Part shown: in pieces, positions 797 to 9,162 of the stretch
Layout: every line of letters starts with the position of its first letter
How positions within the stretch are numbered: position 1 is the first letter of the stretch
DNA from: a virus
IMG/VR virus record: IMGVR_UViG_3300009314_000008
Location: 1 to 64,000 of that record
Length of the DNA: 64,000 bases
Reading direction: 5' to 3' (one strand)
The notes under the pieces: model-generated
Databases searched by the model: none
What the model saw: only the letters and a program-made list of their open reading frames with translations
Told to the model about the DNA's origin: nothing
Translations under genes and position numbers: made by a program

Positions 797-3700
797 GTGT
801 TTATGAAGGATATCAGTCTGGATAACGGTTCGGGGAAAACCGAAGACATTAAAAAGTCTTTAGTAGCAGGGCTTAATAAAATTTTTCCCATAGAATCTAA
901 TAAGAGAAAATTATCTATTGAGAACATTTGGTTTGGCAGACCAAACTTTGACGGCAATTCATGGAAGGATATCAATGATGCTCACAAGTCTAAAAGCACA
1001 ATAGGATTACCCTACCACTATGACATGGTTATTACGGACAAAGAATCCGGGAAAACTATTTCCCGTAAGAAAGTTAAGGGCGGAACCCTCCCGACTAAAG
1101 TTCCCTTACTGATGGGATCTTTCATGGTTGATGGCAATGCTTACTCTATTCCCCTTCAGGACAGATTGAAGCCAGGTGCATATGCCAGATTATCTGAAAC
1201 GGGTGAAGCCGAAGTCTACAATAACATAAAGGGTAGCACTCCCCTTCGTACCACGATTAGTCCGGAAAGGGGAATTATTTCTCTTAAAATCAGACAGGGT
1301 AGCGTGCCCCTGTATCCGTTACTAAAATTAATGGGTATCAAAGATGAGAAAATCAAGTCCACCATAGGAAATGAACTCTTTGACAAAAATGCCACTGCTG
1401 ATTATGGAAAAAACATTATGAAGGTTCATAAAATAATGTTCTCCTTCAATGCTGATTCATTAGAAGATGCTGAACAAAACATCAAACATAAGTTCGCATC
1501 CATGTCAACCAGTCCCGAAGTCAATAAAAGGACGCTCGGAGATGACCACAAGAACATTGATGGTCACTATTTGCTAGATACGGCTAAAAAAGTGGTAAAC
1601 ATAACCAGGGGAATTGATTCTCCGGACAACAGGGACTCTCTTATTAATAAATCTACTATGGGTATTGACGACATCCTTAAAGATTCGCTTGAGAGATCCG
1701 GTAAGATGAGCACATTTAGCTACAAAGCTCGCTGGAAAATGAATCACACTGATGACGCATCCAAGATGGTCAATCCGAAAAAGATCGATGAGCACGTTAA
1801 ACAGATATTTACTTCATCCAAATTGTCAAGATACGCTGATCAAACCAATCCTGCATCTATGATATCAGAAAACAACCTTACTACAGTATTAGGAGAAGGT
1901 GGTATTGGCTCTAAAGATGTTGTTACACAGGCTGCCAAAAAACTGCAGAATTCTCATGCTGGATTTATTGACCCGGTCAAAACTCCCGAATCGTACGCTG
2001 CGGGGATCAGCCTCACTTTAGCCAAAGATACAAAAAAGATAGGTAACGAATTGGCTACTAAAGTCATTGATGTTAAAACGGGAGGCGTTTCCTGGCTGCC
2101 AGTATCTAAAACCCTTGACACACCAGTTGCATTCCCGGGAGAGTTTATTAACCGTGGTGGCAAATGGGTTGCTAAAGACAGTGAGGTTGATGTAATCTAT
2201 AATGATGATGAGAAATCTATTGACCCCAGCAAAGTAAGATATATGATTCACAGCCCATCTGGGATGTTTGACATCTCTACTAACATGATCCCCTTTATTC
2301 AATCTAACCAAGCTAACAGGCTCTTAACAGGGACCAAGATGTCCGCCCAGGCGGTTCCTCTCGTTGAACCAGAAAAGCCGCTAGTTGAAACAGTAGTTGA
2401 TGGGATTCCTATGCTGGATGCTATTGGGGACAAGTTCTCTACGAAGGCTAAACAATCCGGAACCGTTTCTAAAGTCACCAAAGATATTATTGAGGTTACT
2501 TCAGGTAATGGCACATCTCAACATTCTATTCCTAGCGATGTCCCTCTTAATGAGAAATCATTTATAGACGCTATTGTAAAGGTTAAAAAGGGTGATAAGG
2601 TTAAAAAAGGGCAACTTCTTGCAGATTCAACTTTTACCCGGGATGGAAAATATGTTAATGGAGTGAATTTAGTCACAGCATATACTCCATGGCAGGGGCT
2701 GAACCACGAGGATAGTGCAGTCATCACCGAAAGTGCGGCCAAAAAACTCAAATCACTCCATGTTCACAAGATAACACTACCCAAAAAACACAACTTATCT
2801 CTTAATTTAGAAAAATATAAAGCATACAATCCCTATGTCCTTGATAAAATCGAGTCCGGCAATTATGATAAAGACGGGGTTATTAAGCCGGGAACTACGG
2901 TTAAGACCCACGATCTATTAATTGCCGCCATGGAAGATAATGTCGTTACCGGAGCAGATAGCCTTATTGCCAAAATGAAAAAATCTTCTATCCAACCATT
3001 TAAGGATGCTTCCGTCTCCTGGAGAAAAAGTCCGGAGGGCAAAGTCATTGATGTAGTAAAAGATAAAGATGCTGTAAAGGTATATATCAAAACAACCGAA
3101 CCCTTTAAAGTGGCTGATAAAATTGTCGGCCGACATGGTAACAAGGTTACTGTATCATCTATTATCCCTGACAAATTAGCTCCCGTTACAGAATCTGGAG
3201 AAAAGGTTGAACTAATAATTGATCCTCTCTCCGTTCCTAGTCGTATCAATATAGGTCAACTCATTGAAACTGCTGCAGGCAAGGTCGCTGACAAGAAAAA
3301 ATCTCCATATTTAGTAAATAATTTTGACGGATCTGATCACCGCAAACAGATTTTAGACATCATGAAAGATATTGGAATCAAAGAAACTGAAGATATTTTT
3401 GATCCAGCCACAGGGGCCACAATCCCAAATATATTGGTGGGAAAACAGTACATAAATAAATTAAAACATCAGGTTGAGCACAAAATGTCCTCCCGTGGAG
3501 TTACCGGACCCTATACTTACAATAATCAGCCTATTGCTGGTAGCGGTCGTGGTGGAATGGCGTTTGATAACTTGACCACAAATGTATTATTATCTCATGG
3601 AGCAAAAGATATCCTTCGGGAAGGGTTCAATGTTAAAAACAACCCTAACACTGATTATTGGAGGGCAATCCAACACGGAGAAGTCCCTCCAGCTCCAACT

Positions 3701-4036
3701 ACATCCTATGAGTGGAAAAAATTTGAATCGCTATTGAAGGGAATGGGTATCAATACTAAGAAAAAAGGATCCTCCATTAAATTAGCACCCATGACGGATA
3801 AAGATGTTTTAGATATAAGTAAAGGTGAAATCGAATCTCCGATAAAAACATTTCGAGGCAAAGGCGCTTCCCTTACTCCAGATAAGCATGGATTATTCGG
3901 CGATAACGCAGGGGGGTTCATGGGACAACATTTTAATCATATCAAACTCAATAAACCTATTCCTAATCCTGCATTCAAGGAGGGCATTAAAGCAATCCTT
4001 CGTCTTACTGACAAGGAATTTGAGGAGTCACTTTAA
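797..4036 (+). CDS. rpoB: phage RNA polymerase beta subunit fused to the beta' N-terminal segment
   Basis: beta motifs IDPVKTPES, MIPFIQSNQANRLLTGTKMSAQAVPL, GLNHEDS, ADKIVGRHGNK, PLSVPSRINIGQLIE, KLKHQVEHKMSSR; C-terminal LAPMTDKDVLDISKGEI..GLFG..NHIKLNKPIPNP resembles the start of beta'. Confidence 0.92.
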   Translation: MFMKDISLDNGSGKTEDIKKSLVAGLNKIFPIESNKRKLSIENIWFGRPNFDGNSWKDINDAHKSKSTIGLPYHYDMVITDKESGKTISRKKVKGGTLPTKVPLLMGSFMVDGNAYSIPLQDRLKPGAYARLSETGEAEVYNNIKGSTPLRTTISPERGIISLKIRQGSVPLYPLLKLMGIKDEKIKSTIGNELFDKNATADYGKNIMKVHKIMFSFNADSLEDAEQNIKHKFASMSTSPEVNKRTLGDDHKNIDGHYLLDTAKKVVNITRGIDSPDNRDSLINKSTMGIDDILKDSLERSGKMSTFSYKARWKMNHTDDASKMVNPKKIDEHVKQIFTSSKLSRYADQTNPASMISENNLTTVLGEGGIGSKDVVTQAAKKLQNSHAGFIDPVKTPESYAAGISLTLAKDTKKIGNELATKVIDVKTGGVSWLPVSKTLDTPVAFPGEFINRGGKWVAKDSEVDVIYNDDEKSIDPSKVRYMIHSPSGMFDISTNMIPFIQSNQANRLLTGTKMSAQAVPLVEPEKPLVETVVDGIPMLDAIGDKFSTKAKQSGTVSKVTKDIIEVTSGNGTSQHSIPSDVPLNEKSFIDAIVKVKKGDKVKKGQLLADSTFTRDGKYVNGVNLVTAYTPWQGLNHEDSAVITESAAKKLKSLHVHKITLPKKHNLSLNLEKYKAYNPYVLDKIESGNYDKDGVIKPGTTVKTHDLLIAAMEDNVVTGADSLIAKMKKSSIQPFKDASVSWRKSPEGKVIDVVKDKDAVKVYIKTTEPFKVADKIVGRHGNKVTVSSIIPDKLAPVTESGEKVELIIDPLSVPSRINIGQLIETAAGKVADKKKSPYLVNNFDGSDHRKQILDIMKDIGIKETEDIFDPATGATIPNILVGKQYINKLKHQVEHKMSSRGVTGPYTYNNQPIAGSGRGGMAFDNLTTNVLLSHGAKDILREGFNVKNNPNTDYWRAIQHGEVPPAPTTSYEWKKFESLLKGMGINTKKKGSSIKLAPMTDKDVLDISKGEIESPIKTFRGKGASLTPDKHGLFGDNAGGFMGQHFNHIKLNKPIPNPAFKEGIKAILRLTDKEFEESL

Positions 4037-4798
4037 ATGGAATGTCCTTCGATCATTAAGGTCGCACTATCCAAAAGACTTAAAAAAGATTTAATTATTC
4101 CCAAGGGGACGATCTTTCGCGACATTAGACCAGGAACAACTGTCAAATACATTAGTCCCGGCCATTATGATTCAATTTTTGGACTAACAAAAGATACCTA
4201 CGGTTCTATAATGTATTCGTTTGATAACAATATTGACACAAAACAGAAACGTTTATTAAATGAATATTTCGAGAATATTAACAGTATGTCTAAAACAGCC
4301 AGACCAAGTAAAATAAAGGCACTATATAACATCATGAGAACCAGACAATATCTTCCATCTCTTGACAAAATAGATTTTGTTAAATTCCCAGACAAAAATA
4401 TTTTTGTCAGAGAAGATATTAAACCGATTACGCAGTTCCCCAAAAGAAATACTAAATCGAAATTGTTGGAGATGCTTGAAGGCTCTGCTCATGAGGGATT
4501 TCATCAATTAGGTGTTCATAAGGATGTTATCTCAATCAAAGAACTTCAAAGACTTGGGTTTAAGAGATCTATTGGACTTCCTGTCCCGGGCGAGTTCGTT
4601 TTATCTCCCTCATGGAGACTGGGTAAACTGCATGTTCGTAAATTAAATGACTTATTTCTTATCCATAAAGATAATATTGCCCCGCAAAACTTGATAGATA
4701 CTATAAAACATAATGCTATTGATGTTCCTGCTGGCATCTATGCTTATTGGCTGAAAGGGATAAAAGAAATAGCCACCAATAGTAAGGAGATCAAATGA
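4037..4798 (+). CDS. hypothetical cargo protein with CP-leader (MECPSIIKVA), inserted within the beta' coding region
   Basis: No RNAP motifs; abuts the upstream stop and overlaps the downstream start (ATGA); leader shared with genes at 47.6-62.7 kb. Confidence 0.75.
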   Translation: MECPSIIKVALSKRLKKDLIIPKGTIFRDIRPGTTVKYISPGHYDSIFGLTKDTYGSIMYSFDNNIDTKQKRLLNEYFENINSMSKTARPSKIKALYNIMRTRQYLPSLDKIDFVKFPDKNIFVREDIKPITQFPKRNTKSKLLEMLEGSAHEGFHQLGVHKDVISIKELQRLGFKRSIGLPVPGEFVLSPSWRLGKLHVRKLNDLFLIHKDNIAPQNLIDTIKHNAIDVPAGIYAYWLKGIKEIATNSKEIK

Positions 4799-5787
4799 GT
4801 GAAATACTCAACAGACTATCCGACATCGATATTGACGATAGGTTACCTCGCATTAAAAATAGAATAGAGCATGAGACTAGCCCCAGGATAATTGATAAGT
4901 TAGTTAAGGAGTTTAAGGTTTTAAATAATCTTAAGAAAGAGGGATTAACTCCATATGAGGCATTTACTAGAGAGATTGTGCCAGTTATCCCAGCTCAGTT
5001 CAGATCACCCATCGAACTTCCCAATGGCAACATTTTTAGCCCAGAGACTAATATACTGCTTCGAGATATTGCTCTCACAAATAATCTTGTTGATAAATCA
5101 AAAGAAATGGGGAAAGAACAGGAAGATAAAGCAACCAAAGAACTTTACAAAACCGTTGAGAAACTAATGGGATTCAAATCCCCCGAAGAGGGAAAGAATT
5201 TATTCGACACTATATCCGGTGGTAAGGCCCCCCCCAAGAGAGGATTCTTCCAAAGGCATATGGTTCGCAAACGTCAAAACATGTCAGGAGGGTCAGTGAT
5301 ATCCCCTGGTCCTCATTTAGATATTGATGAAGTCGAAATACCATATGATATTGGGCTAAATATTTTTGAACCATTTATTAAAAAAGAACTCACGGAACGT
5401 GGATATGCCAACGATGACATCGAAAAGGCAATATCAAAACGAACTTCATTAGCAAAAGACGCTCTTTTATCAGCCAGTAGGAACAGGCCTGTATTGATTA
5501 ACAGAGCCCCGTCTATTTGGCAAGGATCAGTAACTGCACATAAGCCAATATTTACAAATAAGAAGAACATTACTATCCCTAGCTTGCTTACGGCTTATCA
5601 GGGTGCGGATTTTGACGGTGATAGTTGCATATCTTTCATTCGTTTACGTTATAAGCAGAATGCTGATTTTTATATTGACATTAAGTCTGTTTTTAAATAC
5701 ATTGTCTCCATAATTAAAATATGGAGGAAGAAAATAAATGCGAATAGCAATAACAGACAACAGGCGAAACATAATAGTAAACGATGA
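4795..5787 (+). CDS. rpoC: RNA polymerase beta' middle fragment (catalytic ADFDGD) plus N-intein
   Basis: VPVIPAQFRSP, GFFQRHMVRKRQNMSGGSVISPGP, VLINRAPSIW, YQGADFDGD at 5596-5622, then non-RNAP SCISFIRLRY. Confidence 0.92.
   Translation: MSEILNRLSDIDIDDRLPRIKNRIEHETSPRIIDKLVKEFKVLNNLKKEGLTPYEAFTREIVPVIPAQFRSPIELPNGNIFSPETNILLRDIALTNNLVDKSKEMGKEQEDKATKELYKTVEKLMGFKSPEEGKNLFDTISGGKAPPKRGFFQRHMVRKRQNMSGGSVISPGPHLDIDEVEIPYDIGLNIFEPFIKKELTERGYANDDIEKAISKRTSLAKDALLSASRNRPVLINRAPSIWQGSVTAHKPIFTNKKNITIPSLLTAYQGADFDGDSCISFIRLRYKQNADFYIDIKSVFKYIVSIIKIWRKKINANSNNRQQAKHNSKR
5623..5787 (+). mobile_element. split intein N-part (short, Ser1-Cys2)
   Basis: RNAP similarity stops exactly after DFDGD; S-C-I-S-F-I-R-L-R-Y is block-A-like; the remaining tail overlies a promoter. 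Confidence 0.75.
5675..5727 (+). promoter_or_regulatory. sigma70-type promoter and RBS for the endonuclease gene
   Basis: TTGACA (5675-5680), N17, TACATT (5698-5703); GGAGG at 5723-5727; ATG at 5738. Confidence 0.7.
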
Positions 5788-6814
5788 ATTTTCGAAACAG
5801 TCAATTATGGTTAAAGGTGGCAAAAAGGACACTTATTTGATGATCAAGCCCGCAAGTGATAATTCCGTTAAAACTATTGATATTGCAGACAATAATATCG
5901 TTTGCAATAGAGAATCAGGTCAATTTTTTGGCATGTTTATTGGAGACGGATGGGCAGATGCTAGCAACGGAAATCGTAAGGGGTATCATATTAGCATTGC
6001 TTCCATTCATGATGAGATTATAATCGCGTTCAGAACATATGCTAACAAATTTTTAAGGCAACACCTCGCATATACACCAGGGATACATCATAAAAATACC
6101 AAACACGATTATTGGGATAACCATACATCTATTCATGGCAAATTTACTATAGGAGTTCCTGCTAACACATGTTCAGCGATGCTTGCTACTTTTGGACATG
6201 GAGCAAAAAATAAAACATTTCCAGATAATTTATTAAATACCCCCAATGATTTCAGATGGGGGCTACTGTCTGGCTTGATGGATACAGATGGCACATTCAC
6301 ATATCGCCAACAAACAAAGAATGGTAAGCTATGCTACAATAAGTTGTCAACATATTCAACCGTCAGTATAAATCTCGCTAATAAAGTACAACTACTTTGC
6401 TTTACCCTCGGTATAAATGCTTCGATAACTACTACGATACACAAACATGATGATCGTCCTAATGTTACAGAATATTTAGTAGTATTAAGCGTTAAACATT
6501 TAACAGAATTGAGAGACAACCTATCTTTGATACTTCCATATAAAAAAGATATCCTCCATAAATTCACGATAGAAAATCAAGCATACCGCAAAGATATTGT
6601 TCCTTATGATAATGAAATTCATAAGTTAATAAAGTCTTTGATCCCCTACAAAGACAGATCAACAGTATTATCCCTTGCTCGCAATCGTGGCTATATCACC
6701 CGACAAACAATGGATAGATACTACTATGGTCCAATCAAAGAGTTGTACGACACCAAATTTAACTACAATCATCAATATGAAATCGTAAAGGAGATAATTG
6801 AGGTACCAATATGA
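5738..6814 (+). CDS. free-standing LAGLIDADG (DOD-type) homing endonuclease
   Basis: Two LAGLIDADG motifs, GQFFGMFIGDGW and WGLLSGLMDTDG; also AKNKTFP and STVSINLANKVQLLCFTLGINAS, typical of intein endonucleases. Confidence 0.9.
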   Translation: MRIAITDNRRNIIVNDEFSKQSIMVKGGKKDTYLMIKPASDNSVKTIDIADNNIVCNRESGQFFGMFIGDGWADASNGNRKGYHISIASIHDEIIIAFRTYANKFLRQHLAYTPGIHHKNTKHDYWDNHTSIHGKFTIGVPANTCSAMLATFGHGAKNKTFPDNLLNTPNDFRWGLLSGLMDTDGTFTYRQQTKNGKLCYNKLSTYSTVSINLANKVQLLCFTLGINASITTTIHKHDDRPNVTEYLVVLSVKHLTELRDNLSLILPYKKDILHKFTIENQAYRKDIVPYDNEIHKLIKSLIPYKDRSTVLSLARNRGYITRQTMDRYYYGPIKELYDTKFNYNHQYEIVKEIIEVPI

Positions 6815-7323
6815 ATAATTTTTCCCTTTTTAATCGTTTTCTTCATAAGCTTTCATACAAGCTTTTTGGTAAAGGCAAAGTCTTTATCGGAGACATTGAC
6901 CACTACCCATATCCTATTGAAGTAAAAGGCAATTGCTTTGGCGGACAAAACATTAAATATGTAGCACTCCCTGGCCAAATGTGCACATCCATCACAAAAA
7001 ATGGCAAAATTGTTGAAGACGAGATCACATACTTTTCTATCCACAGAAATATCCCCCTCTATAAAGTTATTTATTCGGATGGTTCAGAGATACTAACATC
7101 TCCAGTCAACACAATACTTATCATGTCTGATGATAAATGGGAAAGGGCTAATCTTATAGATATGAGTATTGTGGGCAAAGTGTCTCCTGGGTTCTCGGAT
7201 GGTAGCATTATATACAAAAAAGTAGTTGAAGTTATAAATACCCACAAAAAAGTAGACATGTATGATGTTTCACTTAAGAATGAAACCACTTTTCTTACCG
7301 ATTCCGACATATTTGTCTTTGAT
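6811..7323 (+). mobile_element. split intein C-part (171 aa, ends Phe-Asp; +1 residue Thr)
   Basis: Joining DFDGD to TVSVHVP restores the bacterial DFDGDQMAVHVP register exactly. Confidence 0.8.
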
Positions 7324-9162
7324 ACTGTATCTGTCCATGTCCCAATTTCAGACAAGGCTGTCAAAAATGCTAAAAACATGATGCCTTCCATGTCTCTTAT
7401 AGAAGAAGAAACAGGCAAGATAAAAGCTTTCCCTGATCATTCCGCAGTGGCTGGACTTCATATACTGTCTAAAACAGAAGATGGGTTAAACAGGATTAAT
7501 TCAGTTCTTCCGGATGGACATAAGGCTACGGGTATACTGGACAAAAATAAAATCAAGAATATAATTAGCAATGTCGCCAAAGATAGTGAGCCAGTAGCCG
7601 CCAAAGTTGCTAATAAGCTAAGAGAGTTAGGCGATAATCATGCATATAAATCAGGGTTTTCCCTATCTTTATCAGATATTGAACCACTACAGGATATCAA
7701 ACAAGAGGCCATTGATAAGGCTATCAAAAAATTGAAGTATGTTGACCCTGGTGATTCAGTTAAGATAGAACAAATTTACCAGAGTATTATTGCCGATACA
7801 GACAAGAAGGTATTAGAGAGAATGAAAAACAGCAAGGGCAATATCCCTGTCATGTTGAATTCTCGAGCTCGAGGCAGCATGTCCCAATTCCGTGATATCA
7901 TAGTGTCACCTATCGCCATTGCCAGCAAAGAGATATCTAAAAAACCTATTAAACATGCTTATTCAGAAGGACTTTCTCCTGCAGAATATTGGAAGTCCGC
8001 ACATGGTGCTCGCAGAGGAGTTATTGGTCGCGCCCAGGAGACCGCGCTGCCCGGCGCCCTCGGTAAAGAATTACTATCCACTACAAATACCCTCATTACC
8101 CGGGGAGATAAACCTGATAGCCTCCGATCAATAGAGTTGCCTCTTGATAACACAGACGATGTTTTAGATCGATATACCGCCCGAGACATCAGAGATGATG
8201 ATAATAGGACAGTAGTCAAAAAAGATACTCTAATTAATCCGGATATTATACAAAAGCTGCTAAAAAAAGATATCAAGAATGTTAGAGTTTATACTCCTCT
8301 GGGTAGTAGTAACATTGACGGGACTATACCATCAGTTGCGTATGGGATTAATAAATATAAAGAGATCCCGGAAGATGGTTACCCAGTAGGTGCAATTAGT
8401 GCATTCGGATTAGTTGAGCCCCTGTATACTGGATCTATGCAGAAATTTCATACTGGGTCTGCTATAGAAGACCAAGCTGCAGGATATCCGAGACTCAAAC
8501 AATTACTCGAGCTTACTTCTTCAACAACTGAACGCAAAAAGCTTCCCAGTGAAGCAACACTGTCTACCGTCTCCGGCGAAGTTGAATCAATAGAGAATGA
8601 TGATCTTGGTGGACATAATGTCACCATAGGTGGTAAGAAACACTACGTCCTGCCTGCCAACAAACTGAAAATTAAGGTCGGGGATTCTGTCGGTAGAGGA
8701 GACTCTCTCTCAACGGGTCCTATCCAACCAAAGGACCTCGCTAAACTGAAATCTATAGAAAGTGCACAAAAGTACATGGTTGATGAAATTCGAAAAGTTA
8801 TTCCTGAATTGAGAAGAAGGAACGCTGAGGTCATAGTAGAGGGATTAACCAGATATGGCAAAATCATTGATCCGGGAGACACCGAATATTTACCAGGAGA
8901 CATTGATCTCGTCAATAACATTAATGCCAAAAATACCGAATTTGATGATAATCCAGCATCATTTGAATATCTTTTCCGCGGAGTAAATACACTCCCCCAG
9001 GAAACACAATCATGGCTATCTAAACTTAACTTCCGTAACCTCAAACGCGTATTTCAGAAGGATCTGATTACTGGTGCAGAAGCAGACATACATGGTCCCG
9101 AACCAATACCTGGACTAGCCTATGGGGTTGAATTCGGCAAGGGTAAGAAAGGTCACTATTAG
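6811..9162 (+). CDS. rpoC: C-intein (aa 1-171) plus RNA polymerase beta' C-terminal fragment
   Basis: RBS GAGGT at 6800-6804; HINT blocks YSDGSEILTSPVN and MYDVSLKNETTFLTDSDIFVFD, then TVSVHVPIS, SRARGS, YSEGLSPAEYWKSAHGARRG, EPLYTGSMQKFHTG, GYPRLKQLLE. Confidence 0.92.
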   Translation: MNNFSLFNRFLHKLSYKLFGKGKVFIGDIDHYPYPIEVKGNCFGGQNIKYVALPGQMCTSITKNGKIVEDEITYFSIHRNIPLYKVIYSDGSEILTSPVNTILIMSDDKWERANLIDMSIVGKVSPGFSDGSIIYKKVVEVINTHKKVDMYDVSLKNETTFLTDSDIFVFDTVSVHVPISDKAVKNAKNMMPSMSLIEEETGKIKAFPDHSAVAGLHILSKTEDGLNRINSVLPDGHKATGILDKNKIKNIISNVAKDSEPVAAKVANKLRELGDNHAYKSGFSLSLSDIEPLQDIKQEAIDKAIKKLKYVDPGDSVKIEQIYQSIIADTDKKVLERMKNSKGNIPVMLNSRARGSMSQFRDIIVSPIAIASKEISKKPIKHAYSEGLSPAEYWKSAHGARRGVIGRAQETALPGALGKELLSTTNTLITRGDKPDSLRSIELPLDNTDDVLDRYTARDIRDDDNRTVVKKDTLINPDIIQKLLKKDIKNVRVYTPLGSSNIDGTIPSVAYGINKYKEIPEDGYPVGAISAFGLVEPLYTGSMQKFHTGSAIEDQAAGYPRLKQLLELTSSTTERKKLPSEATLSTVSGEVESIENDDLGGHNVTIGGKKHYVLPANKLKIKVGDSVGRGDSLSTGPIQPKDLAKLKSIESAQKYMVDEIRKVIPELRRRNAEVIVEGLTRYGKIIDPGDTEYLPGDIDLVNNINAKNTEFDDNPASFEYLFRGVNTLPQETQSWLSKLNFRNLKRVFQKDLITGAEADIHGPEPIPGLAYGVEFGKGKKGHY

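Follow-up and report, generated by a model that had tools for sequence, protein, structure and literature searches.

A probable atypically split intein with an intervening homing endonuclease gene at the DFDGD catalytic loop of a phage-type RNA polymerase β′

It is in a viral stretch of 64,000 nucleotides (positions 1 to 64,000 of the IMG/VR record IMGVR_UViG_3300009314_000008, hereafter "the window") that we describe here a β′ gene of RNA polymerase (RNAP) broken inside the Mg-binding DFDGD loop of the enzyme. Positions 797–9162 of the window encode a divergent multisubunit RNAP, with the Pfam domain Rpb2_6 on 797..4036 and Rpb1 domains on the two open reading frames (ORFs) of the broken gene, ORF1 and ORF3. 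Most likely, this fractured gene carries a functional, atypically split class-1 intein that splices in trans with Ser at position 1 and Thr at position +1, with its N-terminal part (IntN) at the end of ORF1, its C-terminal part (IntC) at the start of ORF3, and a LAGLIDADG homing endonuclease gene (ORF2) between both. Direct support for this proposal comes from the gene layout and its conservation, from the existence of intein-free and contiguous alleles, from the HINT fold modelled for the counterpart of IntC, and from the predicted docking of the two halves. The splicing chemistry, the function of the helices, and the activity of the endonuclease are those that we infer, as follows. The β′ subunit would be made as two separately translated polypeptides, β′N(1–276)–IntN(54 aa) and IntC(171 aa)–β′C(612 aa), encoded on both sides of the mobile LAGLIDADG gene, with the translation of the second coupled to the endonuclease stop. 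The IntN strand S277–K287 would insert between the IntC strands 21–26 and 55–59, and the IntN helix and the N-terminal helix of IntC, which form a helix-loop-helix in contiguous relatives, would probably aid the pairing. Class-1 oxyester splicing would then proceed by an N-O shift at Ser277, transfer to Thr172, cyclisation of Asp171, and an O-N shift, giving an 888-aa β′ with an intact DFDGD-TVSVHVP catalytic loop, while homing by the endonuclease would keep the element in place or let it spread.

All features of the locus lie on the plus strand. ORF1 (4795..5787, 330 aa) reads as β′ down to ...YQGADFDGD276 and continues as S277-CISFIRLRYKQNADFYIDIKSVFKYIVSIIKIWRKKINANSNNRQQAKHNSKR*; its N-extein, β′ residues 1–276 ending in GADFDGD276 (4795..5622), matches Pfam RNA_pol_Rpb1_2 (E 9.6e-13) and aligns with the intein-free homologues P0003 and P0005 up to DFDGD, and its 54 C-terminal residues, which have no RNAP counterpart, constitute IntN (5623..5784), within the upper limit of 54 aa that an earlier note on this DNA had set for it. 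ORF3 (6811..9162, 783 aa) opens with the 171 non-RNAP residues of IntC (6811..7323), ending in FVFD171, and then reads T172-VSVHVPIS, the continuation of the catalytic loop. Similarity to RNAP in ORF3 starts at about residues 168–225 according to tblastn and Pfam, and the C-extein (7324..9162, 612 aa), from T172 as the +1 nucleophile through TVSVHVP... to the end, matches RNA_pol_Rpb1_5 (E 6.1e-13) and is 64% identical to P0003 over 611 columns. The interval 5623–7323 therefore runs exactly from the start of IntN to the end of IntC, and the joined exteins add up to 276 + 612 = 888 aa vs. 887 aa for the intein-free P0003. The endonuclease gene (5738..6814, 358 aa) is preceded by a GGAGGA Shine-Dalgarno sequence (5723..5728), 9 nt before the ATG at 5738 and inside the IntN codons W310-R311-K312, and the start of ORF3 overlaps the ORF2 stop in ATGA and has its own Shine-Dalgarno sequence, GAGGT (6800..6804), with GAGG 6 nt upstream of the ATG at 6811. 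ORF1 and ORF3 share one frame in the window, and ORF2 is in frame +2. These ORFs and Shine-Dalgarno sites bear out the view of the earlier note that β′ stops after ADFDGD and resumes at TVSVHVP in a separate gene with its own ribosome-binding site. The GC content drops slightly over the intein and endonuclease (33–38%, vs. 37–44% over the exteins), and this was not used as evidence.

The insert lies in frame at a conserved host site and is absent from the close homologues P0003 (887 aa), P0005, and P0006, whose intein-free β′ reads D[FY]DGD|A[VL]S[VI]HVP at this point. Two further relatives carry the insert as a contiguous intein, namely L003, a 1091-aa β′ with a 203-aa mini-intein (DFDGD|CLVCDVSV...FVMD|TMAVHVP), and P0122, of 1108 aa (DFDGD|SCITMIDIHLRF...LYD|TAAIHVP), and both inserts align with the IntN of the split forms, a short linker, and their IntC. 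The split form is found again in independent metagenomes as seven further IntC-β′C proteins of 770–783 aa with 42–58% identity (P0001, P0002, P0004, P0007, P0121, P0123, and P0124) and as seven β′N-IntN proteins of 319–343 aa with equally truncated ends (P0129–P0135). In a maximum-likelihood tree of the C-exteins, the split window gene is sister to P0003, which has no intein (support 100/100), the split P0121 is sister to the contiguous P0122 (100/99), and the contiguous L003 is sister to P0008, which has none at the DFDGD site (100/98), so the intein-free, contiguous, and split states are interleaved on the tree of the host gene.

The residue at position +1 follows the presence of the intein, as it is Thr in 10/10 intein-bearing genes and Ala in 3/4 intein-free ones, the exception being P0008, itself the sister of an intein-bearing gene. 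The hypergeometric chance of this association is 4/364 = 0.011, for rows that are not phylogenetically independent, and such tracking is what the requirement for a +1 nucleophile predicts. The exception is a 1268-aa β′ that keeps Thr+1 with no intein at DFDGD. Further down the same protein, at residues ~660–1037, there is a different and canonical 378-aa LAGLIDADG maxi-intein (...SFH|CFHGDVSV...IWTHN|TGG), and therefore the β′ family hosts inteins at two sites at least. Other searches for relatives gave little: a first scan of viral contigs found none and a second only two distant β′ loci (L001 and L002), a scan of genome contigs found none, and tblastn against cultured phages found only β′ genes of 24–28% identity and no intein match.

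The element is barely recognisable as an intein by its sequence, and it was structure prediction that revealed its fold. The AlphaFold2 model of the contiguous L003 intein, whose equivalent part is 39% identical to the window IntC, has a mean predicted local distance difference test score (pLDDT) of 80, with 85–97 over residues 61–210; two alignments were used in turn, of 10 and of 18 rows, several IntN helices being misaligned in the second. Foldseek with this model returned only inteins, BIL, and Hedgehog domains, bar one low-probability Tudor-domain match at rank 50, with 9hth at the top (E 4e-7). In VIA-align, the model superposed on 6rpp with Z 15.8 and a root-mean-square deviation of 2.4 Å over 143 residues, and 68 chains had Z≥8. 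Residues 57–211 of the model align from about residue 12–15 to the end of solved inteins (12–164 in 6rpp), so the part equivalent to IntC residues ~20–171 is, in the model, unambiguously a HINT domain that lacks the first strand, β1, only. The claim of the earlier note that IntC carries blocks B, F, and G fits this alignment well, in which every HINT element other than β1 is present. Since solved inteins align only from residue ~12, the split lies just after block A and strand β1, that is, in the N-proximal, atypical position. According to the alignment of relatives and the L003 model, IntC itself would consist of an N-terminal helix (~3–19) followed by the HINT strands from β2 to the end.

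The missing strand appears to be supplied by IntN. A complex prediction with IntC(1–185) and ORF1(265–330), each with an 8-row alignment, gave an ipSAE interface score of 0.77 (runs 0.74, 0.77, and 0.79), when the best of three controls gave 0.00, with at least 75% of contacts in agreement between runs and a partner pLDDT of 61. The mark for this score is reached by 58/80 solved complexes and by 2/110 mismatched pairs, counts that apply only roughly here, since the present prediction was made with alignments of our own. The confident contacts join IntN 275–287 and V299 with IntC 20–26 and 55–59 (the flanking strands), 76, 78, 94–101, 150–153, 161–165, and 169–170, and the contacted positions would thus include the invariant H78, S97 and N100 of block B, D152 of block F, and the C-terminal junction. 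As to the structural check proposed in the earlier note, whether IntN and IntC form a HINT fold together, IntN 277–287 is predicted to dock into the β1 gap. We suggest keeping in mind that passing this mark shows a likeness to solved split inteins and is not proof of binding, and that part of the result may be recall of the fold.

The contribution of IntN to the HINT core would then be the 11 residues S277–K287 (SCISFIRLRYK, 5623..5655), which the family alignment, the complex prediction, and the intein alignments agree in marking as the Ser1 nucleophile and strand β1 (block A/N1). Beyond it, an amphipathic helix, ~D291–K313 (5665..5733), is inserted after β1, and its type is conserved in 10/10 family members, split or contiguous (alignment A2); V299 is the one residue of this helix with a confident contact to IntC. 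The contiguous forms keep this helix and have a second one that corresponds to IntC ~3–19 (H20–32 and H42–52 in the L003 model, both with low confidence). The shortest natural IntNs, those of P0135 (37 aa) and P0131 (40 aa), stop right after the helix. Judging from these alignments, the natural IntN would comprise about 37–40 conserved residues, β1 plus the amphipathic helix. The earlier estimate that only about 10 residues of IntN are functional thus holds for the confidently docked core 277–287 and fails for IntN as a whole, given the conserved helix and a shortest natural IntN of 37 aa. The tail, I314–R330 and the stop (5734..5787), is not conserved as protein among the relatives and represents read-through into the endonuclease element; it changes with that element, as seen in P0129 with a LAGLIDADG neighbour (WRKG-DENSNN) vs. 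P0130/L005 with an IscB neighbour (WRKG-GQLPTT). The last 16 IntN codons of the window are overlapped by the endonuclease ORF that starts at 5738, and only these 16 appear unconstrained as IntN. It had also been suggested that the IntN tail overlies a promoter, a suggestion that we could not sustain, since the nine promoter-like sites in 5400–7000 do not stand out from the 7.4 ± 2.6 found in shuffled sequences; one of them, TTGACA-17-TACATT, is at 5675–5703.

The residues expected of the splicing centre are in part present. The family has Ser or Cys at position 1 (Ser in 9/10 members and Cys in L003) together with Thr at +1, in keeping with the class-1 pattern of Cys/Ser at 1 and Cys/Ser/Thr at +1. 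Position 2 varies, being G, S, A, C, or L in the relatives, and for this reason Cys278 was rejected as the nucleophile. E71, H78, S97, D152, D171, and T172 are invariant in the window and the seven split relatives, and N100 is kept in all split members except P0123, which has Arg. The terminal Asp (D171) and the block-F Asp are each conserved in 10/10 members. On these grounds of conservation, the candidate catalytic residues of IntC are H78 (7042–7044), S97 and N100 of block B (7099–7110), D152 at F:4 (7264–7266), and the terminal D171 (7321–7323). In PolB16, an atypically split Ser1 intein, the block-B His (B:10) is dispensable and an "NX" His near Ser1 is critical (PMC10189870). His78, invariant and located at the predicted junction interface, could be a candidate for such an NX-type His, although the preceding Arg/Lys of that motif is missing in most members.

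Several observations weigh against a functional intein and should be stated together. Block B reads S97-P-x-N100 (with Arg for the Asn in P0123) and not Thr-x-x-His, the penultimate His is absent, and the terminal residue is Asp and not Asn. The match of IntC to the Pfam family Intein_splicing (E 2.9e-4) falls below the cut-off, and the IntC profile found no solved intein among PDB sequences, only a chance L11 match with E 0.22. In the AlphaFold2 model of L003, strand β1 and the helices have low scores (pLDDT <50 for residues 1–5 and 9–19, and ~50–58 for the helices), and the docking depends on one predictor that may remember solved inteins. As for block B, B:10 His has been called the most conserved intein residue, only two inteins being known without it, one a pseudogene and the other with a compensating Lys, with the Tko CDC21-1 intein listed as lacking the block-B His (PMC4031507); the terminal Asn, on the other hand, is replaced in rare variants by Asp, Gln, or Glu (PMC4031507).

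The loss of block-B His, penultimate His, and terminal Asn could mean that the HINT domain is domesticated or degenerate and no longer splices, so that the β′ fragments would be held together non-covalently by IntN-IntC with 225 extra residues retained, and many jumbo-phage RNAPs do function as split β/β′ fragments, at least as outlined in PMC7598289. We regard this as improbable, given that the break lies inside the Mg-binding DFDGD loop and that a close relative such as P0003 (64% identical) functions with no insert at all. Moreover, Ser/Cys1, Thr+1, the terminal Asp, and the block-F Asp are retained throughout the family, Thr+1 tracks the intein, inteins ending in Asp or Gln can splice (PMC4031507), and the precedent of PolB16 shows that B:10 His can be dispensed with. 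The non-canonical catalytic residues would also suit a decaying gene in which the endonuclease insertion killed both the intein and this RNAP copy. Both halves are, however, intact ORFs in at least eight lineages at 42–58% identity, with invariant active-site residues in intein and extein, which points to purifying selection and makes decay a very unlikely explanation.

A self-splicing intron around the endonuclease gene, whose removal from the RNA would recreate a contiguous mini-intein ORF like those of L003 and P0122, is about as hard to defend as decay. In AR9-like jumbo phages, RNAP genes do contain introns (bioRxiv 10.1101/2020.12.14.422802), the common frame of ORF1 and ORF3 would allow it, and Rfam can miss group I introns that are divergent. 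Against it, Rfam gave no group I or II match at E≤1 in 5300–7600, where only a chance long non-coding RNA match appeared, and nothing at the gathering score in the whole window; in 8/8 split members, the initial Met of the IntC ORF falls on one position of the alignment, the window Met having its own Shine-Dalgarno sequence and ATGA coupling; and the two parts of L005 do not share a frame, with an IscB gene and its omega RNA filling the space between them. Finally, the source is a metagenome-assembled contig, and false stops in a single contiguous intein ORF would mimic the split. Such an artefact is hardly credible, since both junctions are bridged, with 0 differences, by Logan contigs of a second sample from the same marine study (5582–5757, 5732–5966, and 6617–6949), independent assemblies of other studies show equal ORF ends, and the gap holds a complete 358-aa endonuclease ORF with homologues. 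The possibility raised in the earlier note, that reads would give one contiguous ORF, thus finds no echo in the second-sample contigs, which match the split layout. The stretch is listed for three DNA runs of one marine study and for no RNA run, and none of the contigs of these three runs has a joint that leaves out the endonuclease gene; the run that contains the stretch whole is possibly the source of the window and hence not independent.

In summary, a trans-splicing intein remains for us the likely function of this element. More tentatively, and with clearly less assurance, the family may represent a split intein of its own mechanistic type that by nature needs no cysteine. It would work with Ser1/Thr+1 and a terminal Asp although both the block-B and the penultimate His are absent, perhaps with His78 as an NX-type general base. 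Its core IntN would have only 11 residues, a zipper-like pair of helices would bridge the split, and the split would be a landing pad common to protein-guided LAGLIDADG and RNA-guided IscB/omega elements, the latter acting in L005 as the "homing endonuclease".

The occupant of the split is, in the window, a double-motif LAGLIDADG gene. ORF2 matches Pfam LAGLIDADG_3 (PF14528, E 9.8e-13), contains the motifs GMFIGDGW and GLMDTDGT with their acidic residues, and is single copy in the assembly. The start of ORF2 at 5738 is fixed by its homologues P0155–P0157, whose N-termini likewise read M[KR][IVL]AITDN. The nearest matches in cultured phages, partial and of 24–42% identity, lie inside genes annotated as PhoH, helicase, GyrA, and primase-helicase; they are likely DOD domains embedded in inteins, which hints that ORF2 may derive from the endonuclease domain of an intein. 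P0155 is 62% identical to ORF2, and P0129, P0155, and P0001 are each listed with a longest contig of 48,060 bp, so that, grouping the trio by this shared listing, the P0129/P0001 relative appears to carry a LAGLIDADG gene in the slot.

Among the relatives, L005 (metagenome contig Ga0208769_1003598) is the only one in which the occupant was read directly, and there an RNA-guided OMEGA element stands in the homing-endonuclease position of the fractured gene, where the window has a LAGLIDADG gene. It comprises an IscB-type ORF of 470 aa (3552..4964) with RRXRR and HNH domains (Pfam E 2.1e-57 and 9.8e-6) and a full-length HEARO/omega RNA, RF02033 (3477..3709; 110 bits vs. a gathering score of 83, E 8.3e-24, model positions 1–211), which starts exactly where the conservation of IntN ends (..TGGAGGAAAGGTG|GTCAATT). 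With LAGLIDADG in the window and IscB plus omega in L005, unrelated mobile nucleases therefore seem to occupy one point. A literature search, largely of titles and abstracts, found no paper linking IscB with split inteins.

Fractured genes with split inteins are known already, and inteins with an atypical split have an established place as tools. The fractured terminase (GOS TerL) gene described in 2009 has a long C-terminal intein part with all motifs except N1 (Dassa et al., PMC2677866), in line with the statement of the earlier note that fractured phage genes with split inteins and a free endonuclease, and terminase inteins with a short IntN, had been reported. As in the window, the split intein there interrupts the gene of a conserved enzyme, mainly of phages, and an endonuclease gene separates the two parts. 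The window differs in its host, RNAP β′, and its site inside DFDGD|x, which is new as far as our literature search goes; in its endonuclease, of the LAGLIDADG_3 family, for which one relative has IscB and omega RNA; and in having Ser1/Thr+1, a terminal Asp, a block-B Asn, and a helix-loop-helix insertion that flanks the split. PolB16 OarG (PMC10189870; PDB 8cpn) is likewise naturally and atypically split, with an IntN of 15 aa, shorter than that of the window, and an IntC of 168 aa, and it uses cysteine-independent Ser1/Ser+1 oxyester chemistry; the L003 model aligns with 8cpn at Z 11.0, and the critical NX His near Ser1 in PolB16 recalls the invariant His78 of the window, which touches the junction of IntN in the complex prediction. 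There is, however, no detectable sequence similarity between the two, the window IntN is longer (54 aa, 37–40 of them conserved) and has a helix, its block-B His is replaced by Asn and its terminal residue is Asp instead of Asn, and His78 does not have the preceding Arg/Lys of the NX motif in most members. The closest structural match, Aes123 PolB1 (PDB 9hth; PMC11923092; Foldseek E 4e-7, Z 15.0), is also a cysteine-less split intein of a phage, but with 15–18% identity and with DNA polymerase B, not RNA polymerase, as its host. Multisubunit RNAP catalytic subunits do host inteins in archaea (Mja rPol A′, Mja rPol A″, and Nph rPol A″) and in eukaryotic and viral RPB2-type genes (PMC1635734), but those are contiguous and reside in cellular or eukaryotic-virus RNAPs. 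Our literature search found no paper that combines "intein" with "NADFDGD", the insertion sites of archaeal rPol A′ not being part of the comparison.

What seems new, therefore, is the host and site, phage RNAP β′ inside DFDGD, within the reach of the literature searched; an intein family without detectable sequence similarity to known ones; the absence of three canonical catalytic residues; the two helices next to the split; and the IscB/omega occupant in a relative. If the proposal is true, the intein must leave the Mg-binding loop before any viral transcription by this RNAP can take place. The interleaved intein-free, contiguous, and split alleles would offer a natural series on how endonuclease insertion creates split inteins, and the IscB/omega occupant links OMEGA elements to the biology of inteins and homing endonucleases. 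Split inteins are a class used by protein engineers as ligation tools, of which this element would be a chemically unusual member; as a second, unrelated family that combines a core IntN of 11 residues with Ser/Thr chemistry, it would make a useful candidate wherever semisynthetic labelling calls for oxidising conditions, and having lost three canonical catalytic residues, it would be a test case for the dispensability of the textbook mechanism.

As for the genomic context, the window is on contig C1 of a 2.76-Mb assembly of 189 contigs, and a canonical rpoC (1396-aa frame) is on another contig, C62; the split gene is therefore an extra, divergent RNAP of phage type. PHROGs gave essentially no matches for ten neighbouring large ORFs and Terminase_6N had no match in the assembly, and because of this the label "phage" rests on the divergent extra RNAP and on the metagenomic relatives. 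Two more Intein_splicing matches in the assembly, C31:23158–24231 (56.7 bits, above the cut-off) and C10:32260–32892 (23.4 bits, below it), are presumably inteins in unrelated genes.

The operon has other peculiarities. In the 1079-aa "β" ORF (797–4036), read from its translation, the C-terminal part resembles the N-terminus of β′ (...DKHGLFGD...FNHIKLNKPIPNPAF...), so that the start of the β′ clamp seems to be fused to β in the window. Between this ORF and the β′ body there is an unrelated 253-aa ORF (4037..4798) with the N-terminus MECPSIIKVA. L005 has an equal order with two inserted ORFs, one starting MRCPEIIKEA... and the other MKCPGIIKEA..., the latter with an InPase domain (E 1.9e-51). 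The N-terminal decapeptide MxCPxIIKxA thus heads ORFs inserted in the RNAP operon both in the window (4037) and in L005 (1285–2516), and this leader is therefore conserved across related phages.

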